A stretch of DNA of 64,000 nt from Rickettsiales bacterium. Its GTDB lineage: Bacteria; Pseudomonadota; Alphaproteobacteria; Methylaequorales; Methylaequoraceae. The stretch is taken from assembly GCA_002691145.1 (NCBI GenBank), contig NZHE01000026.1:114546-178545 (forward strand). The letters run 5' to 3'. The notes below the pieces were generated by a model. That model ran no database searches. It saw only the letters and a program-made list of their open reading frames with translations, and was not told where the DNA came from. Of the stretch, positions 52,902-64,000 are shown piece after piece. The translations under genes were made by a program, and so were the position numbers. Each line of letters opens with the position of its first letter. The first letter of the stretch is position 1.

Positions 52902-53792
52902 TTAATAATTTCTCTCAATTATTAGTTTCGTAATTTTCGTTAAGTTGTTTGATTTAGAACCAAAGCTAGATATTAGATCAATTGACTCGTCGATTAAATC
53001 TTTTGCCATCTGTTTTGCTTTTTTTACTCCTAAGAATGAAATGAAAGTTTTTTTTCCTTGTAATTTATCTTTATTTATTTTCTTTCCAACTTTACTCTCT
53101 TCTCCCTCAAAATCGAGCAGATCATCTTTTATTTGAAAAGCAATTCCGAGATTAAATGAATATTTCTCAAATAATTCATAAAATTCTTTTTCTTTTTTTG
53201 CTAATATTGGAGCAGAAATGCAAGAAAATCTAAATAATTCCCCAGTTTTAAGTCTCTGAAGTTTCTTTATATCTCCAAAATTTAGATCCTTACTTGAGGC
53301 TTCTAAGTCTAACATTTGCCCCTCAACCATACCTGTAACACCTGCAGATTTACAGAGCTCATTTATTAAATTACACCTAACAGCAGAACATGGATGTGTC
53401 TCTTTTTCTGATAAGATTTGAAATGACAAACATTGCAGAGCATCACCAACTAATATAGCCGTAGCAACATCAAATTTTTTATGACAAGTCAGACTTCCTC
53501 TTCTCATGTCATCGTTATCCATTGCTGGCAAATCGTCATGAACTAAAGAGTAACAATGCATTAATTCAATACTTATTGCAACATTCACTGCTTGCTTTAT
53601 ATCTACATCTAAAATTTTGGCAATTTCCAAAACAAAAATAGGTCTTAATCTTTTTCCACCAACATTTAAAACATATTTTATTGCCTCCAATATAGAAGCA
53701 TCTGAAAATTTTGCTCTACTTACAAACTTTAAAATCTTGTCCGTAACATATTTAGAATAATTTTCTAAATAAGCTTTGAATTCACTATTCAT
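52902..53792 (-). CDS. ispA: (2E,6E)-farnesyl diphosphate synthase / geranyltranstransferase
   Basis: 'LVHDDLPAMDNDDMRRG' (first DDxxD) and 'GIAFQIKDDLLD' (second DDxxD). Confidence 0.9.
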   Translation of the reverse strand: MNSEFKAYLENYSKYVTDKILKFVSRAKFSDASILEAIKYVLNVGGKRLRPIFVLEIAKILDVDIKQAVNVAISIELMHCYSLVHDDLPAMDNDDMRRGSLTCHKKFDVATAILVGDALQCLSFQILSEKETHPCSAVRCNLINELCKSAGVTGMVEGQMLDLEASSKDLNFGDIKKLQRLKTGELFRFSCISAPILAKKEKEFYELFEKYSFNLGIAFQIKDDLLDFEGEESKVGKKINKDKLQGKKTFISFLGVKKAKQMAKDLIDESIDLISSFGSKSNNLTKITKLIIERNY

Positions 53793-59128: not shown

Positions 59129-60442
59129 TTGAATAAATTTTCTAAAAAAATCGCTGTAGCCGCAATACCTGCTGTTATGGCCCTTTCTGCATCTGCTGTC
59201 GACTCAAAACAACTTCTAATGAGTGAAGGTGGCTGGGAAATATCGTTTGATGGTGCAGCAAACGCATTTTATAACGTGACTAATTCTGATGCTACCAACG
59301 ATGCAACATTCGCTGGTGCTAATACTGTAACAACTTTTGAAACTGCAGGTGATTTCATTGCAAGTGATGGAGCTCAAACAAGTTCTATTTCTGTTGGTTT
59401 ATTACCTAACGTTTTTGGTTTTACCATAAAAGCCCCAACTTCTAATGGACTAGATGTTTCAGGTAGATTAGGTATTTATACACACATGAACGCAGATGGT
59501 TCTTCTGCTGCTAGTAACGCACCTAATATGCGTGAAACTAGTTTTACAGTTGCTGGTTCATTTGGTTCTATACTTGCCGGAAGACATTTAGGTCTATGGC
59601 AAAGAAAGGCTATCGTAAACGATGTAACACTCTTTGGCGTTGGTGGTACGGCTGGTAACATTACAGGAACCACATTAGGTAGAATTGGTTCTGGTTATGT
59701 TTACGCTGACTGGTACCCTCAAATTCAATGGACACTTCCAACAATGGGTGCTGTAACTGCTACTGTAAGTTTACTTCAGGCCACACCATTGATTTCCACA
59801 ACTGCTAACTATGGTGCGACTGAAACAGCAACTCCAAGAGTTGAAGTTTTAATTGACGCTAATCACTCTTTCGGTGGAGCTGACATTAACTTCTGGCTTG
59901 ACGGTCAATTTCAAGAGTTAGAGAGAACAACAACCCAAACTACTACTGTTAGAGCTGGAGCAACAGCTTATAATGGTGCTAGCACTGATGAGGCTGATGC
60001 AATAACTGCATACGGTGTTGGAGCTGGTGCAAAGATTACTGTAGGTAGTTTTGATTTAGTAGCTTCCTTTTTCAAAAACCGTGGAGTTGGTATTCAGTTC
60101 CAAGGTAATACAGGTGGATCAACTTACTCAGGTGCACTTGACGCAGTTGGAAAAGCTAGACACTTCTACGGTGGATACATCCAAGCACATGCTGATCTCG
60201 GTGGCGGAACTAATGCCGCTTTCTCGTACGGTCAAAACAAAGCTGTAGCTACTGGTAGTGATATCGAATCACTCACTGTTGCCGAAAGAAATACAGTTGA
60301 ACATTGGAATGGAATGCTTTGGCATAACTTAACTGATGATTTCAGAGTCATCGCTGAAGGTTCTTATTCTGAACAAAGTCTACACATGGGCGGTAGCCAA
60401 GATTCAACAAATGTTTCTCTTGGTGCTTTCTTCTTCTGGTAA
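59129..60442 (+). CDS. Major outer-membrane porin-like beta-barrel protein (Ala/Gly/Thr-rich, C-terminal aromatic)
   Basis: Signal peptide 'MNKFSKKIAVAAIPAVMALSASA', alternating amphipathic beta-strand pattern, ends '...SLGAFFFW'. Strong SD AAGGGAGGG before the TTG start; higher GC and biased codon use suggest high expression. Confidence 0.7.
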   Translation: MNKFSKKIAVAAIPAVMALSASAVDSKQLLMSEGGWEISFDGAANAFYNVTNSDATNDATFAGANTVTTFETAGDFIASDGAQTSSISVGLLPNVFGFTIKAPTSNGLDVSGRLGIYTHMNADGSSAASNAPNMRETSFTVAGSFGSILAGRHLGLWQRKAIVNDVTLFGVGGTAGNITGTTLGRIGSGYVYADWYPQIQWTLPTMGAVTATVSLLQATPLISTTANYGATETATPRVEVLIDANHSFGGADINFWLDGQFQELERTTTQTTTVRAGATAYNGASTDEADAITAYGVGAGAKITVGSFDLVASFFKNRGVGIQFQGNTGGSTYSGALDAVGKARHFYGGYIQAHADLGGGTNAAFSYGQNKAVATGSDIESLTVAERNTVEHWNGMLWHNLTDDFRVIAEGSYSEQSLHMGGSQDSTNVSLGAFFFW

Positions 60443-60465
60443 AATTTATCAGATTGTTATAAACT

Positions 60466-60496
60466 GAAGGGAGATTTTTTAATCTCCCTTTTTTTA
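60466..60496 (+). terminator. Rho-independent terminator after the porin gene
   Basis: GAAGGGAGAT-ttttttaa-ATCTCCCTT followed by TTTTTT. Confidence 0.8.
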
Positions 60497-60505
60497 TGCT
60501 TAAAT

Positions 60506-61429
60506 ATGAAAAAAATCACCTCATTAATTCTGTTTTTCTTTTTAAATTCGTGTGCGGTTTCTGAATTTTTATTTAATGAAGATATATTATGGCTTAGGAC
60601 GATTGAAAATGTTAAATTAGTTGATCAAGACTCAAAAATAGTTCCTAATGTTCATCCAATAAAGATTTCACCCGATCGAGTACAAGGTGCTTTTAGACTT
60701 ATTCTAGTTAGATATAATCAAAAAATGGTACAATTATTTTCAGAGGACAAGTTATATGTTGTTTCACAAGCTATAAGTGAAGGACTTAGAAAAGCAAAGC
60801 CTGATCAAGATATTGTTTTTACTCTCGAGGATTGGTACAAAGGAAAATATACGAAGGATAACAAAGTAACATCAGGTAGAGTATTTTATAATAAAGATGG
60901 CTTGAATATTATTTTTGGCTCAATCCTAAGAAAGGGTTTGATGAATGAGAGTGATCCAATGGTTGCTGCAGTGAATGAGGATTTGAGGATTAACCCATAT
61001 GTTCCAGGTTCTAGAAAAATAAGTATCAAAAATAAATTCTTTCTAGCTGCTCCGCCTAAGTCCGGAGTTTTTAGACCCAGAAATGCTAAAGGAAGGGTAG
61101 ATTGGTTGGTTTTTACAAATAAAGCCTTAAGAGCAAGAGCAATGCTAGGGAATGAGGAAAAAAGAATTTCTCAAAGAAGTAAAATCGAAGTTCAAAGTCT
61201 CAGCAGTGAGGTTAAACAACTTAGAAAGGAAATTGAAAATCTGAGAAGAAACCCAAATCAAGTAAATAGAAGTTCAAACCGAGAATATCAGAGTAATAAA
61301 TATAGAACACAAAATTATAATACAGGTAGTAAAAACAATTTAGAAATCAAAGCATTAAAGAATCTAAGAAGTAAAGGTATTATAAGTGAAAAAGAGTACA
61401 GGGAAAGATTGAGACAGTTAGGCTATTAA
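60506..61429 (+). CDS. Lipoprotein with C-terminal SHOCT domain
   Basis: Lipobox 'FFLNSC', coiled-coil 'EVQSLSSEVKQLRKEIENLRR', C-terminal 'LKNLRSKGIISEKEYRERLRQL' = SHOCT motif. Confidence 0.6.
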   Translation: MKKITSLILFFFLNSCAVSEFLFNEDILWLRTIENVKLVDQDSKIVPNVHPIKISPDRVQGAFRLILVRYNQKMVQLFSEDKLYVVSQAISEGLRKAKPDQDIVFTLEDWYKGKYTKDNKVTSGRVFYNKDGLNIIFGSILRKGLMNESDPMVAAVNEDLRINPYVPGSRKISIKNKFFLAAPPKSGVFRPRNAKGRVDWLVFTNKALRARAMLGNEEKRISQRSKIEVQSLSSEVKQLRKEIENLRRNPNQVNRSSNREYQSNKYRTQNYNTGSKNNLEIKALKNLRSKGIISEKEYRERLRQLGY

Positions 61430-62163
61430 AACTCCACCTCAATATTCCAAATTAGCGCGTTTTTTGAGGCATCTTTTGTAATCCCTTTTAAGTAACCCAA
61501 TTCTAGTTCAAGCTCATATTTATTAATCAAAAATTCTTTACCTAATAAAAAACCAATTTGATGTTCTTGTTTTTGTAATGAGTGAAAATTTGATAATTCG
61601 CCAAATTCCGAGAAATTAATTAAACCTATTTTAAACAAGTTTAATATATTTTTACTAAATTCCAAATAATTGGATAACCCAAATTCAGTAGAACCCGAAG
61701 CAGAAGTACCTATTTGTTTTTCAAAAATAAAGTTTGTTATTAAACTAAACTCTTTAAATAAAAATTGATTAAGAAATTTATATTCTATTTCATCACCTTT
61801 TCTTTCACTCGAATTAAAATTATATGAGAAATAGAGCGCGCTTGCTAGGTACTGTAAGTCTATGATTTGTAGCTGATTTTGTAACTCTGTTTTTTCCCAG
61901 TCTAATGGGGTATCTGTTTTATCAGAAATGTGAAATTCTACTTCACTTTGCCAATAAGAATTCCAAGAATATTCAGTTTCAAAAACCTGATGGTAACTTT
62001 TATCAATCGAATTTGACGATTCTAAATTAAAATGACCTCTCCATTCAAATGATTGACGTCCCTCTTCTACCCTTGGACTATAGATTTTATGATGAGCATT
62101 ACCATTGTTAAATACTAACATAAAGAAAAAAAATAACAAACTACGAATCAAGTAGATCTTCAT
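61426..62163 (-). CDS. Secreted/outer-membrane hypothetical protein (possible small beta-barrel)
   Basis: Signal peptide 'MKIYLIRSLLFFFFMLVFNNGNA', alternating pattern, C-terminal '...IWNIEVEF'. Confidence 0.45.
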   Translation of the reverse strand: MKIYLIRSLLFFFFMLVFNNGNAHHKIYSPRVEEGRQSFEWRGHFNLESSNSIDKSYHQVFETEYSWNSYWQSEVEFHISDKTDTPLDWEKTELQNQLQIIDLQYLASALYFSYNFNSSERKGDEIEYKFLNQFLFKEFSLITNFIFEKQIGTSASGSTEFGLSNYLEFSKNILNLFKIGLINFSEFGELSNFHSLQKQEHQIGFLLGKEFLINKYELELELGYLKGITKDASKNALIWNIEVEF

Positions 62164-62353
62164 CTAAAATTGTCATATGAAATTGATAACTTACTTCTCC
62201 ATCTTCTTCGTCTTTATATATCAGGCCAATAAACTCATCTTTAAAATATAATTCACAAGAATTGTTTTTTACATCATCTTTAATACTAAATTTATCACTT
62301 TCAAATTTAGAGTTTAAATATAATTCTAACTTTTTTAATTCAAATTGTTTCAT
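62141..62353 (-). CDS. Small hypothetical protein (70 aa)
   Basis: ORF only; overlaps the start of the preceding gene by 23 nt. Confidence 0.25.
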   Translation of the reverse strand: MKQFELKKLELYLNSKFESDKFSIKDDVKNNSCELYFKDEFIGLIYKDEEDGEVSYQFHMTILDEDLLDS

Positions 62354-62404
62354 TGACTAGAATTTATAGTAAGAGATAATATAATACTATTACAAAATAA
62401 TAAT

Positions 62405-62794
62405 ATGAAAAATATAATTATTTTTTTCACTCTTCTTGGCGTTTTACCTCTTTATTTAGGTATTATTTTTAATAAGCAATATTTTTACTTAAATAATGAA
62501 AAAATTGAGCTTTATTGCCTTTTAATTTTATCTTTTCTGTGTGGAATGCATTGGCAAGTTCTGATATTTAAGAATAAAAATTCTATTTTTATAATGTCTA
62601 TACCAATTCTTATTTTCATTTGGGGTTGGAGCTCGCAATTTAATAATTTTTTCGATACTCGCCTTATACTAATCACAAGTTTTATCCTCTCATTATTTTT
62701 TGATTATGTCTGTAATATATTTAAGCCTGAAAAATGGTATTTAAAATTAAGAACAATTGTAACAACTTTAGTAATTATTGCACTTTTTCTGTAA
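62405..62794 (+). CDS. Small integral membrane protein (4 predicted TM helices)
   Basis: Hydrophobic segments 'IIIFFTLLGVLPLYLGIIF', 'LYCLLILSFLCGMHW', 'IFIMSIPILIFIWGW', 'LILITSFILSLFF'. Confidence 0.45.
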   Translation: MKNIIIFFTLLGVLPLYLGIIFNKQYFYLNNEKIELYCLLILSFLCGMHWQVLIFKNKNSIFIMSIPILIFIWGWSSQFNNFFDTRLILITSFILSLFFDYVCNIFKPEKWYLKLRTIVTTLVIIALFL

Positions 62795-62927
62795 TTTTTA
62801 GTACTTATATTTCAATGACTTACAAAAAAAGTAAAGATTTTTTCTTGAATTAACTCAATAAGTTAGGCAAGGTCTTAGAAGTTTATTACTTGTGGGGAGG
62901 GTTTAGGCATTACTTACATCCGTTCCG

Positions 62928-62968
62928 CATTAACATTAACATTAATATTAATGTTTAATTAATATTAA
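62928..62968 (+). promoter_or_regulatory. Tandem hexamer repeats (CATTAA)x3-TATTAA and two copies of the palindrome TTAATATTAA in the proteorhodopsin 5' region
   Basis: Read directly: 62928-62951 cattaacattaacattaatattaa; 62942-62951 and 62959-62968 are identical self-complementary TTAATATTAA; 25-65 nt upstream of the PR ATG (SD AAAGGA). Confidence 0.4.
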
Positions 62969-62993
62969 GCATAATTATGAAAGGATATTAGTT

Positions 62994-63689
62994 ATGGATG
63001 GAATGCTACAAACATCTGATTTTGTTGGTGTGACATTTTGGATCATCTCTGTTTCAATGGTTGCCTCAACTTTCTTTTTTTTCTCAGAGGCCAACAATGT
63101 TGGTAAACACTGGGGTACATCAGTCAGAGTAGCTGGTTTGGTTACTTTAATTGCTGCTGTTCACTATTATTACATGCGAGACGTATGGGTAGGCACTGGT
63201 GAAACACCAACGGTACTAAGATATATTGACTGGTTATTAACCGTACCACTTCAAATGATCGAATTCTACTTAATATTAGCTGCTGTAGGTGCTGCAACAG
63301 CTGGAATGTTCTGGCGCCTTTTAATTGGAACACTTGTTATGTTGATAGCTGGCTTCATGGGCGAAGCTGGTTTTATTAATGCAACAGTTGGTTTTGTTGT
63401 AGGCATGGCTGGATGGATTTACATTCTTTATGAAGTGTTCGCAGGTGAAGCTGCTCAAGCTAATACTTCAAGTAATTCTGAAGCTCAAAAATCAGCATTT
63501 AATGCTATGAAATGGATTGTATCAATAGGTTGGTCTATTTACCCTATTGGATATTTCTTAGGATATCTCGCAGGAGGCACTGATGATAGTTCATTAAATG
63601 CAATTTATAATTTAGCAGACTTTATCAACAAGATTTTGTTTGGTCTAGTAATCTGGGCAGCTGCAAAGTCTGAAACTGCTAAAGCTTAA
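62994..63689 (+). CDS. Proteorhodopsin, blue-tuned (Gln at the spectral-tuning position)
   Basis: 'RYIDWLLTVPLQMIEFYLIL' (Asp acceptor, Gln tuning residue, Glu donor), Schiff-base lysine in 'DFINKILFGL', 7 TM helices; 231 aa. Confidence 0.95.
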   Translation: MDGMLQTSDFVGVTFWIISVSMVASTFFFFSEANNVGKHWGTSVRVAGLVTLIAAVHYYYMRDVWVGTGETPTVLRYIDWLLTVPLQMIEFYLILAAVGAATAGMFWRLLIGTLVMLIAGFMGEAGFINATVGFVVGMAGWIYILYEVFAGEAAQANTSSNSEAQKSAFNAMKWIVSIGWSIYPIGYFLGYLAGGTDDSSLNAIYNLADFINKILFGLVIWAAAKSETAKA

Positions 63690-63712
63690 ATAGCTAATGT
63701 TTCTTTAATTTA

Positions 63713-63747
63713 AAAGGGGAAGTACAAATTACTTCCCCTTTTTTTTA
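63713..63747 (+). terminator. Rho-independent terminator after proteorhodopsin
   Basis: AAGGGGAAGTA-caaatt-ACTTCCCCTT followed by T8. Confidence 0.8.
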
Positions 63748-63749
63748 AG

Positions 63750-64000
63750 ATGAGCAAAATTTTATTAAATAAAAAATCCATTGAAAATATAAATGTTCTT
63801 GCAAACAGTAAACACTGGAACATTATTAATGATTATAATGTAAAAAATTTAAATCTAAATCTGAACTCAAAGCTCCTAAGAACCCAATTAAAAAAAGTTG
63901 AAAAACTTATTTCTGAACAGACATGTGACAATTCTTGGATGGGAGAATGTGCTAAGTATCACCTAAATTCAGGAGGAAAAAGGTTTAGAGCAGCTCTCGC
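63750..64000 (+). CDS. crtE: Polyprenyl (geranylgeranyl) diphosphate synthase CrtE-like, 3'-truncated by window end
   Basis: Not in the ORF track because it has no stop. Translation 'MSKILLNKKSIENINVL...ECAKYHLNSGGKRFRAALA' carries the 'GGKR.R' motif that precedes the first DDxxD of trans-prenyltransferases. Located directly downstream of PR, as expected for retinal/carotenoid genes. Confidence 0.55.
   Translation, partial: MSKILLNKKSIENINVLANSKHWNIINDYNVKNLNLNLNSKLLRTQLKKVEKLISEQTCDNSWMGECAKYHLNSGGKRFRAAL

Follow-up and report, generated by a model that had tools for sequence, protein, structure and literature searches.

The 64,000-nucleotide (nt) stretch of contig NZHE01000026.1 analyzed here (the window) ends in the start of a proteorhodopsin photosystem from an AT-rich marine alphaproteobacterium, in which the gene for a blue-type proteorhodopsin is preceded by a 199-nt spacer (62795-62993) and followed, across an intrinsic terminator, by the first gene of a retinal operon. 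Comparison of this spacer across relatives identifies a candidate leader RNA motif specific to one clade: about 65 distinct relatives share promoter-like blocks and a leader of ~95-140 nt with two stem-loops, and the stem sequences of both turn over between lineages while the pairing stays. This candidate motif and the geometry of the terminator/crtE junction are what is new here; the gene content is not, since blue tuning and the linkage of crtEIBY-blh to proteorhodopsin are well established, the gene arrangement having been known since 2005.

We interpret the locus as a rhodopsin unit with stabilizing leader hairpins whose terminator read-through feeds the retinal genes, and assign this reading, in which the transcription start, the stabilizing role and the read-through are predictions, a probability of roughly 0.7. 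The rhodopsin gene would then constitute a compact promoter-to-terminator transcription unit, in which a sigma-70-type promoter would start transcription near 62880 and produce a leader of ~105-115 nt. This leader would fold into stem-loop 1 and then stem-loop 2, followed by an A/U-rich stretch carrying the Shine-Dalgarno sequence. Hairpins at both ends of the mRNA would slow ribonuclease attack and lead to high opsin expression, and crtE-crtI-crtB-crtY-blh would be transcribed at a low level by read-through of the terminator, yielding much opsin and little enzyme.

Two conserved stem-loops in the proteorhodopsin leader

The first-pass annotation had drawn attention to three sequence oddities of the spacer, namely (CATTAA)3-TATTAA tandem hexamers, two identical self-complementary decamers and an unusual GC-rich stretch. 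All of them are real and located where it had placed them, but the role of the GC-rich stretch and the decamers as arms of RNA stems had been missed. The G-rich stretch, TGTGGGGAGGGTTTAGGC at 62891-62908, belongs to stem-loop 1, which starts with the conserved UGUGGGGAGG (Table 1); GGGGAGG is found only twice in the window. When the 5' regions of leaders were folded alone, the G-rich block formed the 5' strand of a three-part stem-loop of 39-56 nt in 25 of 25 genome- or contig-derived relatives, one of which shows a variant outer pairing. Most of the leaders of ~70 relatives also give the three-part stem when folded at full length, with a few minimum-energy folds favoring other pairings, and the 53 new full leaders obtained from a metagenome scan mostly adopt the same fold. 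The scan, based on the promoter-plus-G-block pattern, returned 87 stretches, 70 of which are the AT-rich leader. The remaining 17 are unrelated GC-rich sequences, approximately the number expected by chance as estimated by hand, and this rhodopsin follows in all 55 AT-rich copies that extend far enough.

The pairing of the basal helix was assessed on two alignments. In an alignment of 22 sequences the 12 basal pairs are 84% paired, versus 48-60% with slid partners, and the helix reaches the same 84% once 65 distinct sequences are placed in a model-based alignment, versus 49-61% in slid controls. Five G positions switch between G-C and G-U pairs across these 65 sequences and remain 99-100% paired, none of 500 shuffles reached the covariation score, and 64 of the sequences have GGGGAG unchanged. 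Since G-U pairs, which are frequent here, turn into C-A mismatches when the complementary strand is read, the fold is specific to the RNA of the plus strand. A 1x1 mismatch within the helix (columns 10/76) is also conserved. The apical stems, in turn, are all different (GGGCA/UGCCC, AUAGAUGA/UCAUCUAU, GGAUGA/UCAUCC, GGAUAAC/GUUAUCC, AAACUUG/CAAGUUU and AAAUAAU/AUUAUUU). The apical part is a clear hairpin in most lineages; excised from the window or from relative L011, it folds no better than shuffles. Stem-loop 1 has a mean z score of -3.1, and the apical parts of 10 lineages with mutually unrelated apical sequences give a combined p of ~7e-8, probabilities that are optimistic in that the segments were delimited from the folds themselves. 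As the apical parts defy alignment, RNAalifold run on a MAFFT alignment recovers six core G pairs only, and the energy is weak. Searched with a covariance model of stem-loop 1, the window contains a single site (E 1e-5), and nothing significant was found upstream of the rhodopsins of SAR11, SAR116, SAR92 or gammaproteobacteria.

Stem-loop 2 is built from the decamer TTAATATTAA, of which the window contains exactly two copies (62942-62951 and 62959-62968). With ~1.2 copies expected by chance in the whole window, two copies 17 nt apart are not a chance arrangement. The most informative relative in this respect is L160, whose spacer is ~93% identical to that of the window. The arms of its hairpin, TTAATACTAA and TTAGTATTAA, have each lost their own palindromy, but their mutual complementarity is perfect, a U-A pair having been replaced by C-G, and this compensatory change favors a hairpin over protein-binding palindromes. 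In the same leader, the apical part of stem-loop 1 gains a pair through a substitution and an insertion. Four relatives with rhodopsins 92-94% identical to that of the window (L011, L012, L110 and L111) have neither the decamers nor the CATTAA array and carry a hairpin of unrelated sequence at the same place, and a hairpin of unrelated sequence is found at this position in nearly all lineages folded.

The hexamers are distributed more narrowly. They are present in the ten fetched contigs with identical rhodopsin (L001-L010) and in L160, and absent in L011, L012, L091 and L111, and Tandem Repeats Finder detects just a weak period-6 array at 62929-62968 (score 45, against a usual threshold of 50). 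By inspection, most relatives have an (A/U)UUAAC/UUAAU-like motif at the hexamer position, and the CATTAA array looks like a lineage-specific local expansion of this (A/U)UUAAC linker motif. According to the first-pass annotation, repeats missing from all related genomes would amount to simple low-complexity AT sequence. The hexamers and the exact decamers are in fact missing where the rhodopsin is 92-94% identical, and retained in the near-identical L160; the decamer hairpin and the G-rich strand, however, are kept across the whole clade, so that these are more than simple low-complexity AT sequence.

The z scores of the 19 leaders tested are all negative (mean -2.4), and the leader of L016 folds no better than shuffles (z -0.5 to -0.9). 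No Rfam 15 model matched 62795-62993 at E ≤ 1 in a permissive scan of 60000-64000, which produced chance-level hits only on the terminator, and at gathering score the search of the whole window returned nothing in the leader. Literature searches retrieved no description of a proteorhodopsin leader or untranslated region. Two candidate roles of the leader were rejected. Suitable starts and short frames for a leader peptide after GGAGG were seen by inspection in L017, L018, L019 and L105 only, and not in L024, L013 or the window. That the C/U-rich 3' strand of stem-loop 1 sequesters the Shine-Dalgarno sequence was discarded as a general mechanism, since the complementarity is restricted to few lineages and accessibility is variable.

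Table 1. Features of the proteorhodopsin locus and its neighborhood in the window (+, forward strand; -, reverse strand).
Feature	Position	Strand	Description
Predicted promoter	62838-62873	+	T-tract; -35 TTGAAT (62845-62850); 17-nt spacer; -10 CAAGGT (62868-62873)
Stem-loop 1 of leader (predicted)	62891-62929	+	5' strand UGUGGGGAGGGUUUAGGC paired with CUUACAUCCGUUCCGCA; includes the "GC-rich stretch"
(CATTAA)3-TATTAA hexamers	62928-62951	+	Linker between the stem-loops, running into the 5' arm of stem-loop 2
Stem-loop 2 (predicted)	62942-62968	+	11-bp hairpin, 62942-62952 paired with 62958-62968; loop GUUUA; arms formed by the two TTAATATTAA decamers
Shine-Dalgarno GAAAGGA	62979-62985	+	ATG 8 nt downstream (7-10 nt in relatives, all of which keep the sequence unchanged)
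Proteorhodopsin coding sequence	62994-63689	+	231 amino acids (aa), no signal peptide; assigned from Pfam, alignments to solved structures and key residues
Intrinsic terminator (predicted)	63712-63746	+	13-bp stem AAAAGGGGAAGUA/UACUUCCCCUUUU, 5-nt loop, 8 U; from fold
crtE, 5' part (polyprenyl diphosphate synthase)	63750-64000	+	Cut by the window end; translation equals the N-terminus of the 363-aa gene of L001
DUF3429 membrane protein	62405-62794	+	129 aa; Pfam DUF3429 2.3e-13
DUF3126 gene	62141-62353	-	Divergent; adjoins the DUF3429 gene upstream of rhodopsin in most fetched relatives
Second polyprenyl synthase, ispA-like	52902-53792	-	296 aa; adjoins an xseB-like gene

Promoter-like blocks upstream of the leader

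Among strains with identical rhodopsin the spacer is invariant save for one polymorphic position, and among more distant relatives it is ~59% identical overall, with sharply conserved blocks. The order of these blocks in relatives is T-tract, (C)TTGAAT, 16 or 17 nt, CAnnnT, (U)AUGGGGAGG, an AUCUNCUYGUA-like block, (A/U)UUAAC and ACGAAAGGA. The TTGAAT-N16/17-CAnnnT arrangement recurs in 13 lineages with its spacing preserved, as are A and T in the second hexamer. Because of this fixed spacing and of the invariance of these two bases, TTGAAT and CAAGGT are read as a putative -35/-10 pair of the sigma-70 type, which would place the transcription start near 62880. The heat-shock-type promoter of alphaproteobacteria has the form CTTG-N17-18-CYTAT-NT, and it was rejected here on the basis of a spacing of 20-22 nt. 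The main text of a transcription-start study from the Red Sea reports no rhodopsin start site. Approximately 30 nt 5' of the -35 hexamer, nearly all relatives have an (A)AATCAAT/AATCAGT block (alignment A2, columns 30-38), which reads TTTCAAT in the window (62812-62818) and could be an activator site or the end of the transcript of the upstream gene.

A terminator abutting the retinal genes

The terminator hairpin following the rhodopsin gene has a folding energy of -21.9 kcal/mol and a z score of -4.5; since part of the T-run is taken up by the stem, a simple scanner did not detect it. A hairpin with a U-run lies ~20-40 nt past the rhodopsin stop codon in all 19 clade loci that yielded the junction, with stem sequences that differ. 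The crtE start codon is located 3 nt past the U-run in the window and ~0-25 nt past it in the clade, where the junction mostly has no Shine-Dalgarno sequence. The lack of room for a promoter between U-run and crtE indicates that the retinal genes are probably transcribed via terminator read-through. A terminator hairpin also follows rhodopsin in 18 of 20 rhodopsin-carotenoid clusters of SAR116, SAR92/Porticoccaceae and gammaproteobacteria (L025-L089), suggesting that a monocistronic opsin unit is the rule, whatever gene comes next. The distance from terminator to crt genes is 72-111 nt in the gammaproteobacterial clusters and 137-244 nt in the other clusters outside the clade.

The retinal operon downstream

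The first-pass annotation had predicted that a polyprenyl synthase gene with a GGKRFR motif begins directly after the terminator and opens a retinal-precursor operon, expecting crtI, crtB, crtY and blh beyond the window and DDxxD motifs in the full-length synthase. These predictions are borne out. The open reading frame starting at 63750 encodes an 83-aa fragment with GGKRFR at residues 75-80, and, although this fragment alone has no Pfam polyprenyl-synthase match, it can be typed because the first 83 aa of full-length copies on other contigs are equal to it. The 363-aa protein of L001 matches Pfam polyprenyl_synt (PF00348) and presents two DDxxD motifs, DDLQD at 116 and DDLSD at 247. At least 23 public contigs carry a rhodopsin identical to that of the window. 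Ten of these were fetched, and in the eight that extend far enough (L001-L008) the co-oriented gene order 3' of rhodopsin is crtE-crtI-crtB-crtY-blh, one of them having a shortened crtB call; L009 ends inside crtB and L010 inside crtI. The encoded products comprise, besides CrtE, a phytoene desaturase (491 aa; Pfam Amino_oxidase), a phytoene synthase (283 aa; SQS_PSY), a lycopene cyclase (371 aa; Lycopene_cycl) and a Blh-type beta-carotene dioxygenase (294 aa; BCD), and the genes form a tight array in which neighbors overlap or lie 0-29 nt apart. NCBIfam crtI_fam (541 bits) and blh_monoox (159 bits) are both over their curated cut-offs, and crtB and crtY are identified by Pfam only. Fifteen species-level relatives show the same gene order wherever the fetched locus extends.

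The best NCBIfam matches of crtE are GGPP_syn and short-chain synthases, far under equivalog cut-offs (135 vs 500 bits), and its predicted assignment as a C20 (geranylgeranyl) synthase comes from the operon context and from the presence of a separate ispA-like gene. This second synthase sits at the usual spot of the housekeeping farnesyl-diphosphate synthase, which suggests that crtE is dedicated to the carotenoid pathway of the operon. CrtE has an N-terminal extension of ~45 aa that is kept at the protein level in the clade, and its conservation as protein supports the start codon at 63750.

Two further genes were observed past blh on the contigs with identical rhodopsin. A 280-aa protein (L001:16215-17057, minus strand), encoded on each of the eight fetched contigs that are long enough (L001-L008), has no Pfam match and a faint likeness to 2OG-Fe(II) oxygenases (E 8e-4). 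Next to it, two genes past blh and ~6.1-6.5 kb past the window end, lies a gene for a short LOV protein of 138 aa (L001:17091-17507, plus strand), which has the flavin-cysteine motif GKNCRFLQG and matches Pfam PAS_9 and, under the cut-off, the NCBIfam YtvA-family blue-light photoreceptor (1.7e-40). A blue-light sensor gene is thus found near the gene for a blue-light pump; a literature search on a link between LOV proteins and proteorhodopsin returned nothing relevant.

Identity and spectral type of the proteorhodopsin

The product of the 231-aa open reading frame matches Pfam Bac_rhodopsin (PF01036; 1e-47, residues 11-225), and its closest solved structures are proteorhodopsins (E 1e-75 to 1e-84; Med12 5e-82, HOT75 5e-77). 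The key residues, with green-proteorhodopsin numbers in parentheses, are H57 (75), D79 (97), T83 (101), Q87 (105), E90 (108), D209 (227) and K213 (231), the constant offset of 18 being due to the absence of a signal peptide. Aligned to the solved proteorhodopsins, the protein has the acceptor D79, T83 and the donor E90 (the D-T-E motif) and the Schiff-base lysine K213 in helix G, together with H57 and the counter-ion D209, from which it is predicted to be a light-driven proton pump. The tuning site, a position held by Leu or Met in green types, is Q87 (codon 63252-63254), within TVPLQMIEF; the counterparts of this segment in the alignments are TVPLQVVEF in the blue proteorhodopsin 4KLY and TVPLQIIEF in Med12 (4JQ6). 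The aligned residue is Leu (TVPLL) in the green 8CQC and also in the 4KNF chain, even though the latter is deposited as blue proteorhodopsin. Gln occupies this position in all 15 close relatives. The defining tuning residue hence supports assignment to the blue-absorbing type, which has its absorption maximum near 490 nm, in agreement with the call made from the sequence at first pass.

The absence of an N-terminal signal peptide is shared by the clade (window 62994-63010; starts of L011-L024 and L044), and an in-frame stop lies a few codons 5' of the rhodopsin ATG in the 15 of 15 genome-collection relatives checked. Signal peptides are present in the SAR11 and SAR116 rhodopsins compared and absent in those of SAR92 and Porticoccaceae. 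In many relatives (L013, L016, L020, L023 and others; CAUAUGGAnUAUAUG) the start codon region pairs with codons 3-4 (M-D/E-Y-M) in a small hairpin, which is absent in the window (MDGM).

Genomic context

The GC content is 29.2% for the window and 26% for its intergenic sequence, and 15 species-level genomes carry a rhodopsin 81-93% identical to that of the window. A GC content of 27-32.5% has been described for the AEGEAN-169/HIMB59 group (PMC10308909), and judging from this fit the clade is probably AEGEAN-169/HIMB59-like. The gene order shared among relatives is unknown(-), DUF3126(-), DUF3429(+), proteorhodopsin, crtE, crtI, crtB, crtY. The adjacency of DUF3429 and rhodopsin holds in most fetched relatives whose contig extends that far, is undetected in a few and is absent in L100; the literature on DUF3429 yielded nothing relevant to the rhodopsin neighborhood. 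In L100 (530-751; P0095), whose rhodopsin is 80% identical to that of the window, a different upstream gene lies on the other strand, there is no GGGGAG leader, and the ribosome-binding site is AAGGAG, with crtE kept downstream. The leader is thus replaceable.

Alternative explanations

Several observations weigh against the interpretation of the locus as a rhodopsin unit with stabilizing hairpins and terminator read-through. The start site, the effect on mRNA half-life and the read-through are predictions from sequence. The predicted -10 hexamer is atypical in starting with C instead of T, and the rest of the window shows no excess of the promoter pattern (5 matches vs 2.9 expected). Protection by a 5' hairpin usually tolerates only a few unpaired 5' bases, and in the subgroup of the window stem-loop 1 lies ~10 nt from the predicted 5' end. 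Most of the variation in the basal helix is one-sided (G-C to G-U), only 5 of the 12 pairs show double changes, the sequences compared are related, and the p-values from the fold-delimited segments are optimistic as described above. Adding 21 nt of coding sequence alters the minimum-energy fold of some leaders (L108, L094, L020 and L102), and the accessibility values predicted for the Shine-Dalgarno sequence vary between 0.06 and 0.81 across leaders. Lastly, the invariance of GGGGAG exceeds what a passive hairpin needs, and may point to a sequence-specific partner.

This last observation leads to the main rival, in which the leader is a regulatory RNA whose GGGGAGG and C/U-rich partner strand are bound by a protein, a small RNA, the 30S subunit or a ligand, so that rhodopsin synthesis could respond to light, energy state or retinal supply. 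Apart from the near-complete invariance of GGGGAG in an otherwise divergent intergenic region, the conserved mismatch within the helix and the resemblance of GGGGAGG to a ribosome-binding site fit such a role, as does an alternative fold of the window in which the second decamer pairs with the Shine-Dalgarno/AUG region at nearly the same energy (-27.1 vs -27.7 kcal/mol). The short LOV sensor gene two genes past blh would be in keeping with it, and might be linked to such a leader. On the other hand, the conserved nucleotides are mostly in stems, unlike the loops and junctions of known riboswitches, stem-loop 2 has no conserved sequence at all, and no Rfam family matches. The 3' strand of stem-loop 1 was seen by inspection to complement the Shine-Dalgarno sequence in few lineages only, and neutral drift under a pairing constraint would also give invariant G with variable C/U partners. 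An undescribed cis-regulatory RNA of this clade's proteorhodopsin, tuning opsin and, via the abutting terminator, the retinal operon to a cellular or light signal is consequently considered rather improbable. Unlikely as well, if less so, is the possibility that the retinal genes have a promoter of their own, at the 3' end of the rhodopsin gene or elsewhere, and that the 63712-63746 hairpin acts mainly as a 3' stabilizer and not as an attenuator. The clusters of SAR116, SAR92 and Porticoccaceae leave 140-240 nt between terminator and crt genes, which is room for a promoter, and a promoter-like match is found within the rhodopsin gene (63583-63611). In the clade of the window, however, the crtE start lies so close to the U-run that transcription from any upstream promoter would still cross the terminator, and promoter-like matches are not more frequent than in shuffles (12 vs 8.5 ± 2.5). 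The two remaining proposals deny the leader any role as RNA. That the repeats are functionless slippage products of AT-rich sequence, with hairpins arising by chance, is compatible with the low intergenic GC content, with the weak CATTAA array confined to one narrow lineage and with the unremarkable folding of the L016 leader, but it conflicts with the uniformly negative z scores of the leaders, with the z score of stem-loop 1 and with the compensatory changes. It also conflicts with the retention of a 199-nt spacer of the same architecture in ~65 variants of a streamlined AT-rich clade (coding density is ~96% in AEGEAN-169, the suspected clade; PMC10308909), and is already disfavored as very unlikely. 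Scarcely credible, finally, is the notion that decamers and hexamers are DNA sites, be it operators of a dimeric transcription factor or repeats recognized by a DNA-binding protein at the rhodopsin promoter. Two copies of a self-complementary decamer lie 17 nt apart here and nowhere else in the 64 kb, and a weak promoter-like TTAACA-18-TAATAT overlaps them; yet the decamers lie ~60-90 nt downstream of the conserved promoter blocks, those of L160 are no longer palindromic but remain mutually complementary, and relatives with 92-94% identical rhodopsin keep the hairpin with unrelated sequence.

Significance

Many reports describe high levels of proteorhodopsin transcripts in the surface ocean, and no literature was found on how proteorhodopsin amounts are set at the mRNA level in streamlined oligotrophs. 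The locus offers a concrete expression architecture, in which a clade-specific, covarying two-hairpin leader is combined with a terminator that would leave the retinal genes to read-through. If the proposed stabilizing and read-through roles hold true, a cell with few regulators would obtain much opsin and little enzyme from a single promoter, and the leader would be a candidate motif to add to RNA family databases. The locus also illustrates that odd repeats in AT-rich spacers can be lineage-specific forms of a conserved RNA stem.

Comparison with known systems

With regard to gene content, the closest known systems are the proteorhodopsin operons of the marine BAC clones MED66A03 and RED17H08 (Sabehi et al. 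2005, PMC1175822), which have the same genes beside proteorhodopsin in the order crtE, crtI, crtB, crtY, blh, where blh provides the beta-carotene-cleaving step. An isopentenyl-diphosphate isomerase gene is reported in blh-containing operons (PMC1175822), whereas none was called immediately downstream of proteorhodopsin here. The present locus further differs in that the crtE start abuts the rhodopsin terminator, in the ~45-aa extension of CrtE and in belonging to another lineage with ~29% GC. The protein itself has the same acceptor, donor and Schiff-base residues as the HOT75 blue proteorhodopsin (PDB 4KLY/4KNF) and Med12 (PDB 4JQ6), and differs from them in its native length of 231 aa without a signal peptide.

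The stabilizing role proposed for the leader derives from its resemblance to the leaders of very abundant membrane-protein mRNAs. The E. coli ompA leader is a two-hairpin 5' untranslated region that stabilizes an abundant mRNA. Like the leader described here, it measures ~110-135 nt and has two stem-loops, the first near the 5' end, followed by a single-stranded A/U-rich ribosome-binding region, and both genes encode a very abundant membrane protein. There is no sequence relationship between the two; stem-loop 1 of the proteorhodopsin leader has an invariant G-rich strand, and its predicted single-stranded 5' tail is ~3-12 nt. Structured Rfam motifs are also known upstream of phototrophy genes, such as PhotoRC-I/II and psbA-type motifs. 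They resemble the leader in being conserved RNA structures 5' of a light-harvesting gene in marine microbes, but the leader matches no Rfam 15 model and is confined to a single alphaproteobacterial clade. With respect to the terminator, the intercistronic hairpin of the Rhodobacter puf operon and other intra-operon terminators set subunit ratios. In puf, as in the window, a stable hairpin parts the gene for a much-needed photopigment-protein from genes whose products are needed less; the puf hairpin acts mainly through differential mRNA decay, as has been experimentally demonstrated, while the read-through or attenuation proposed for the proteorhodopsin locus is suggested by its geometry.

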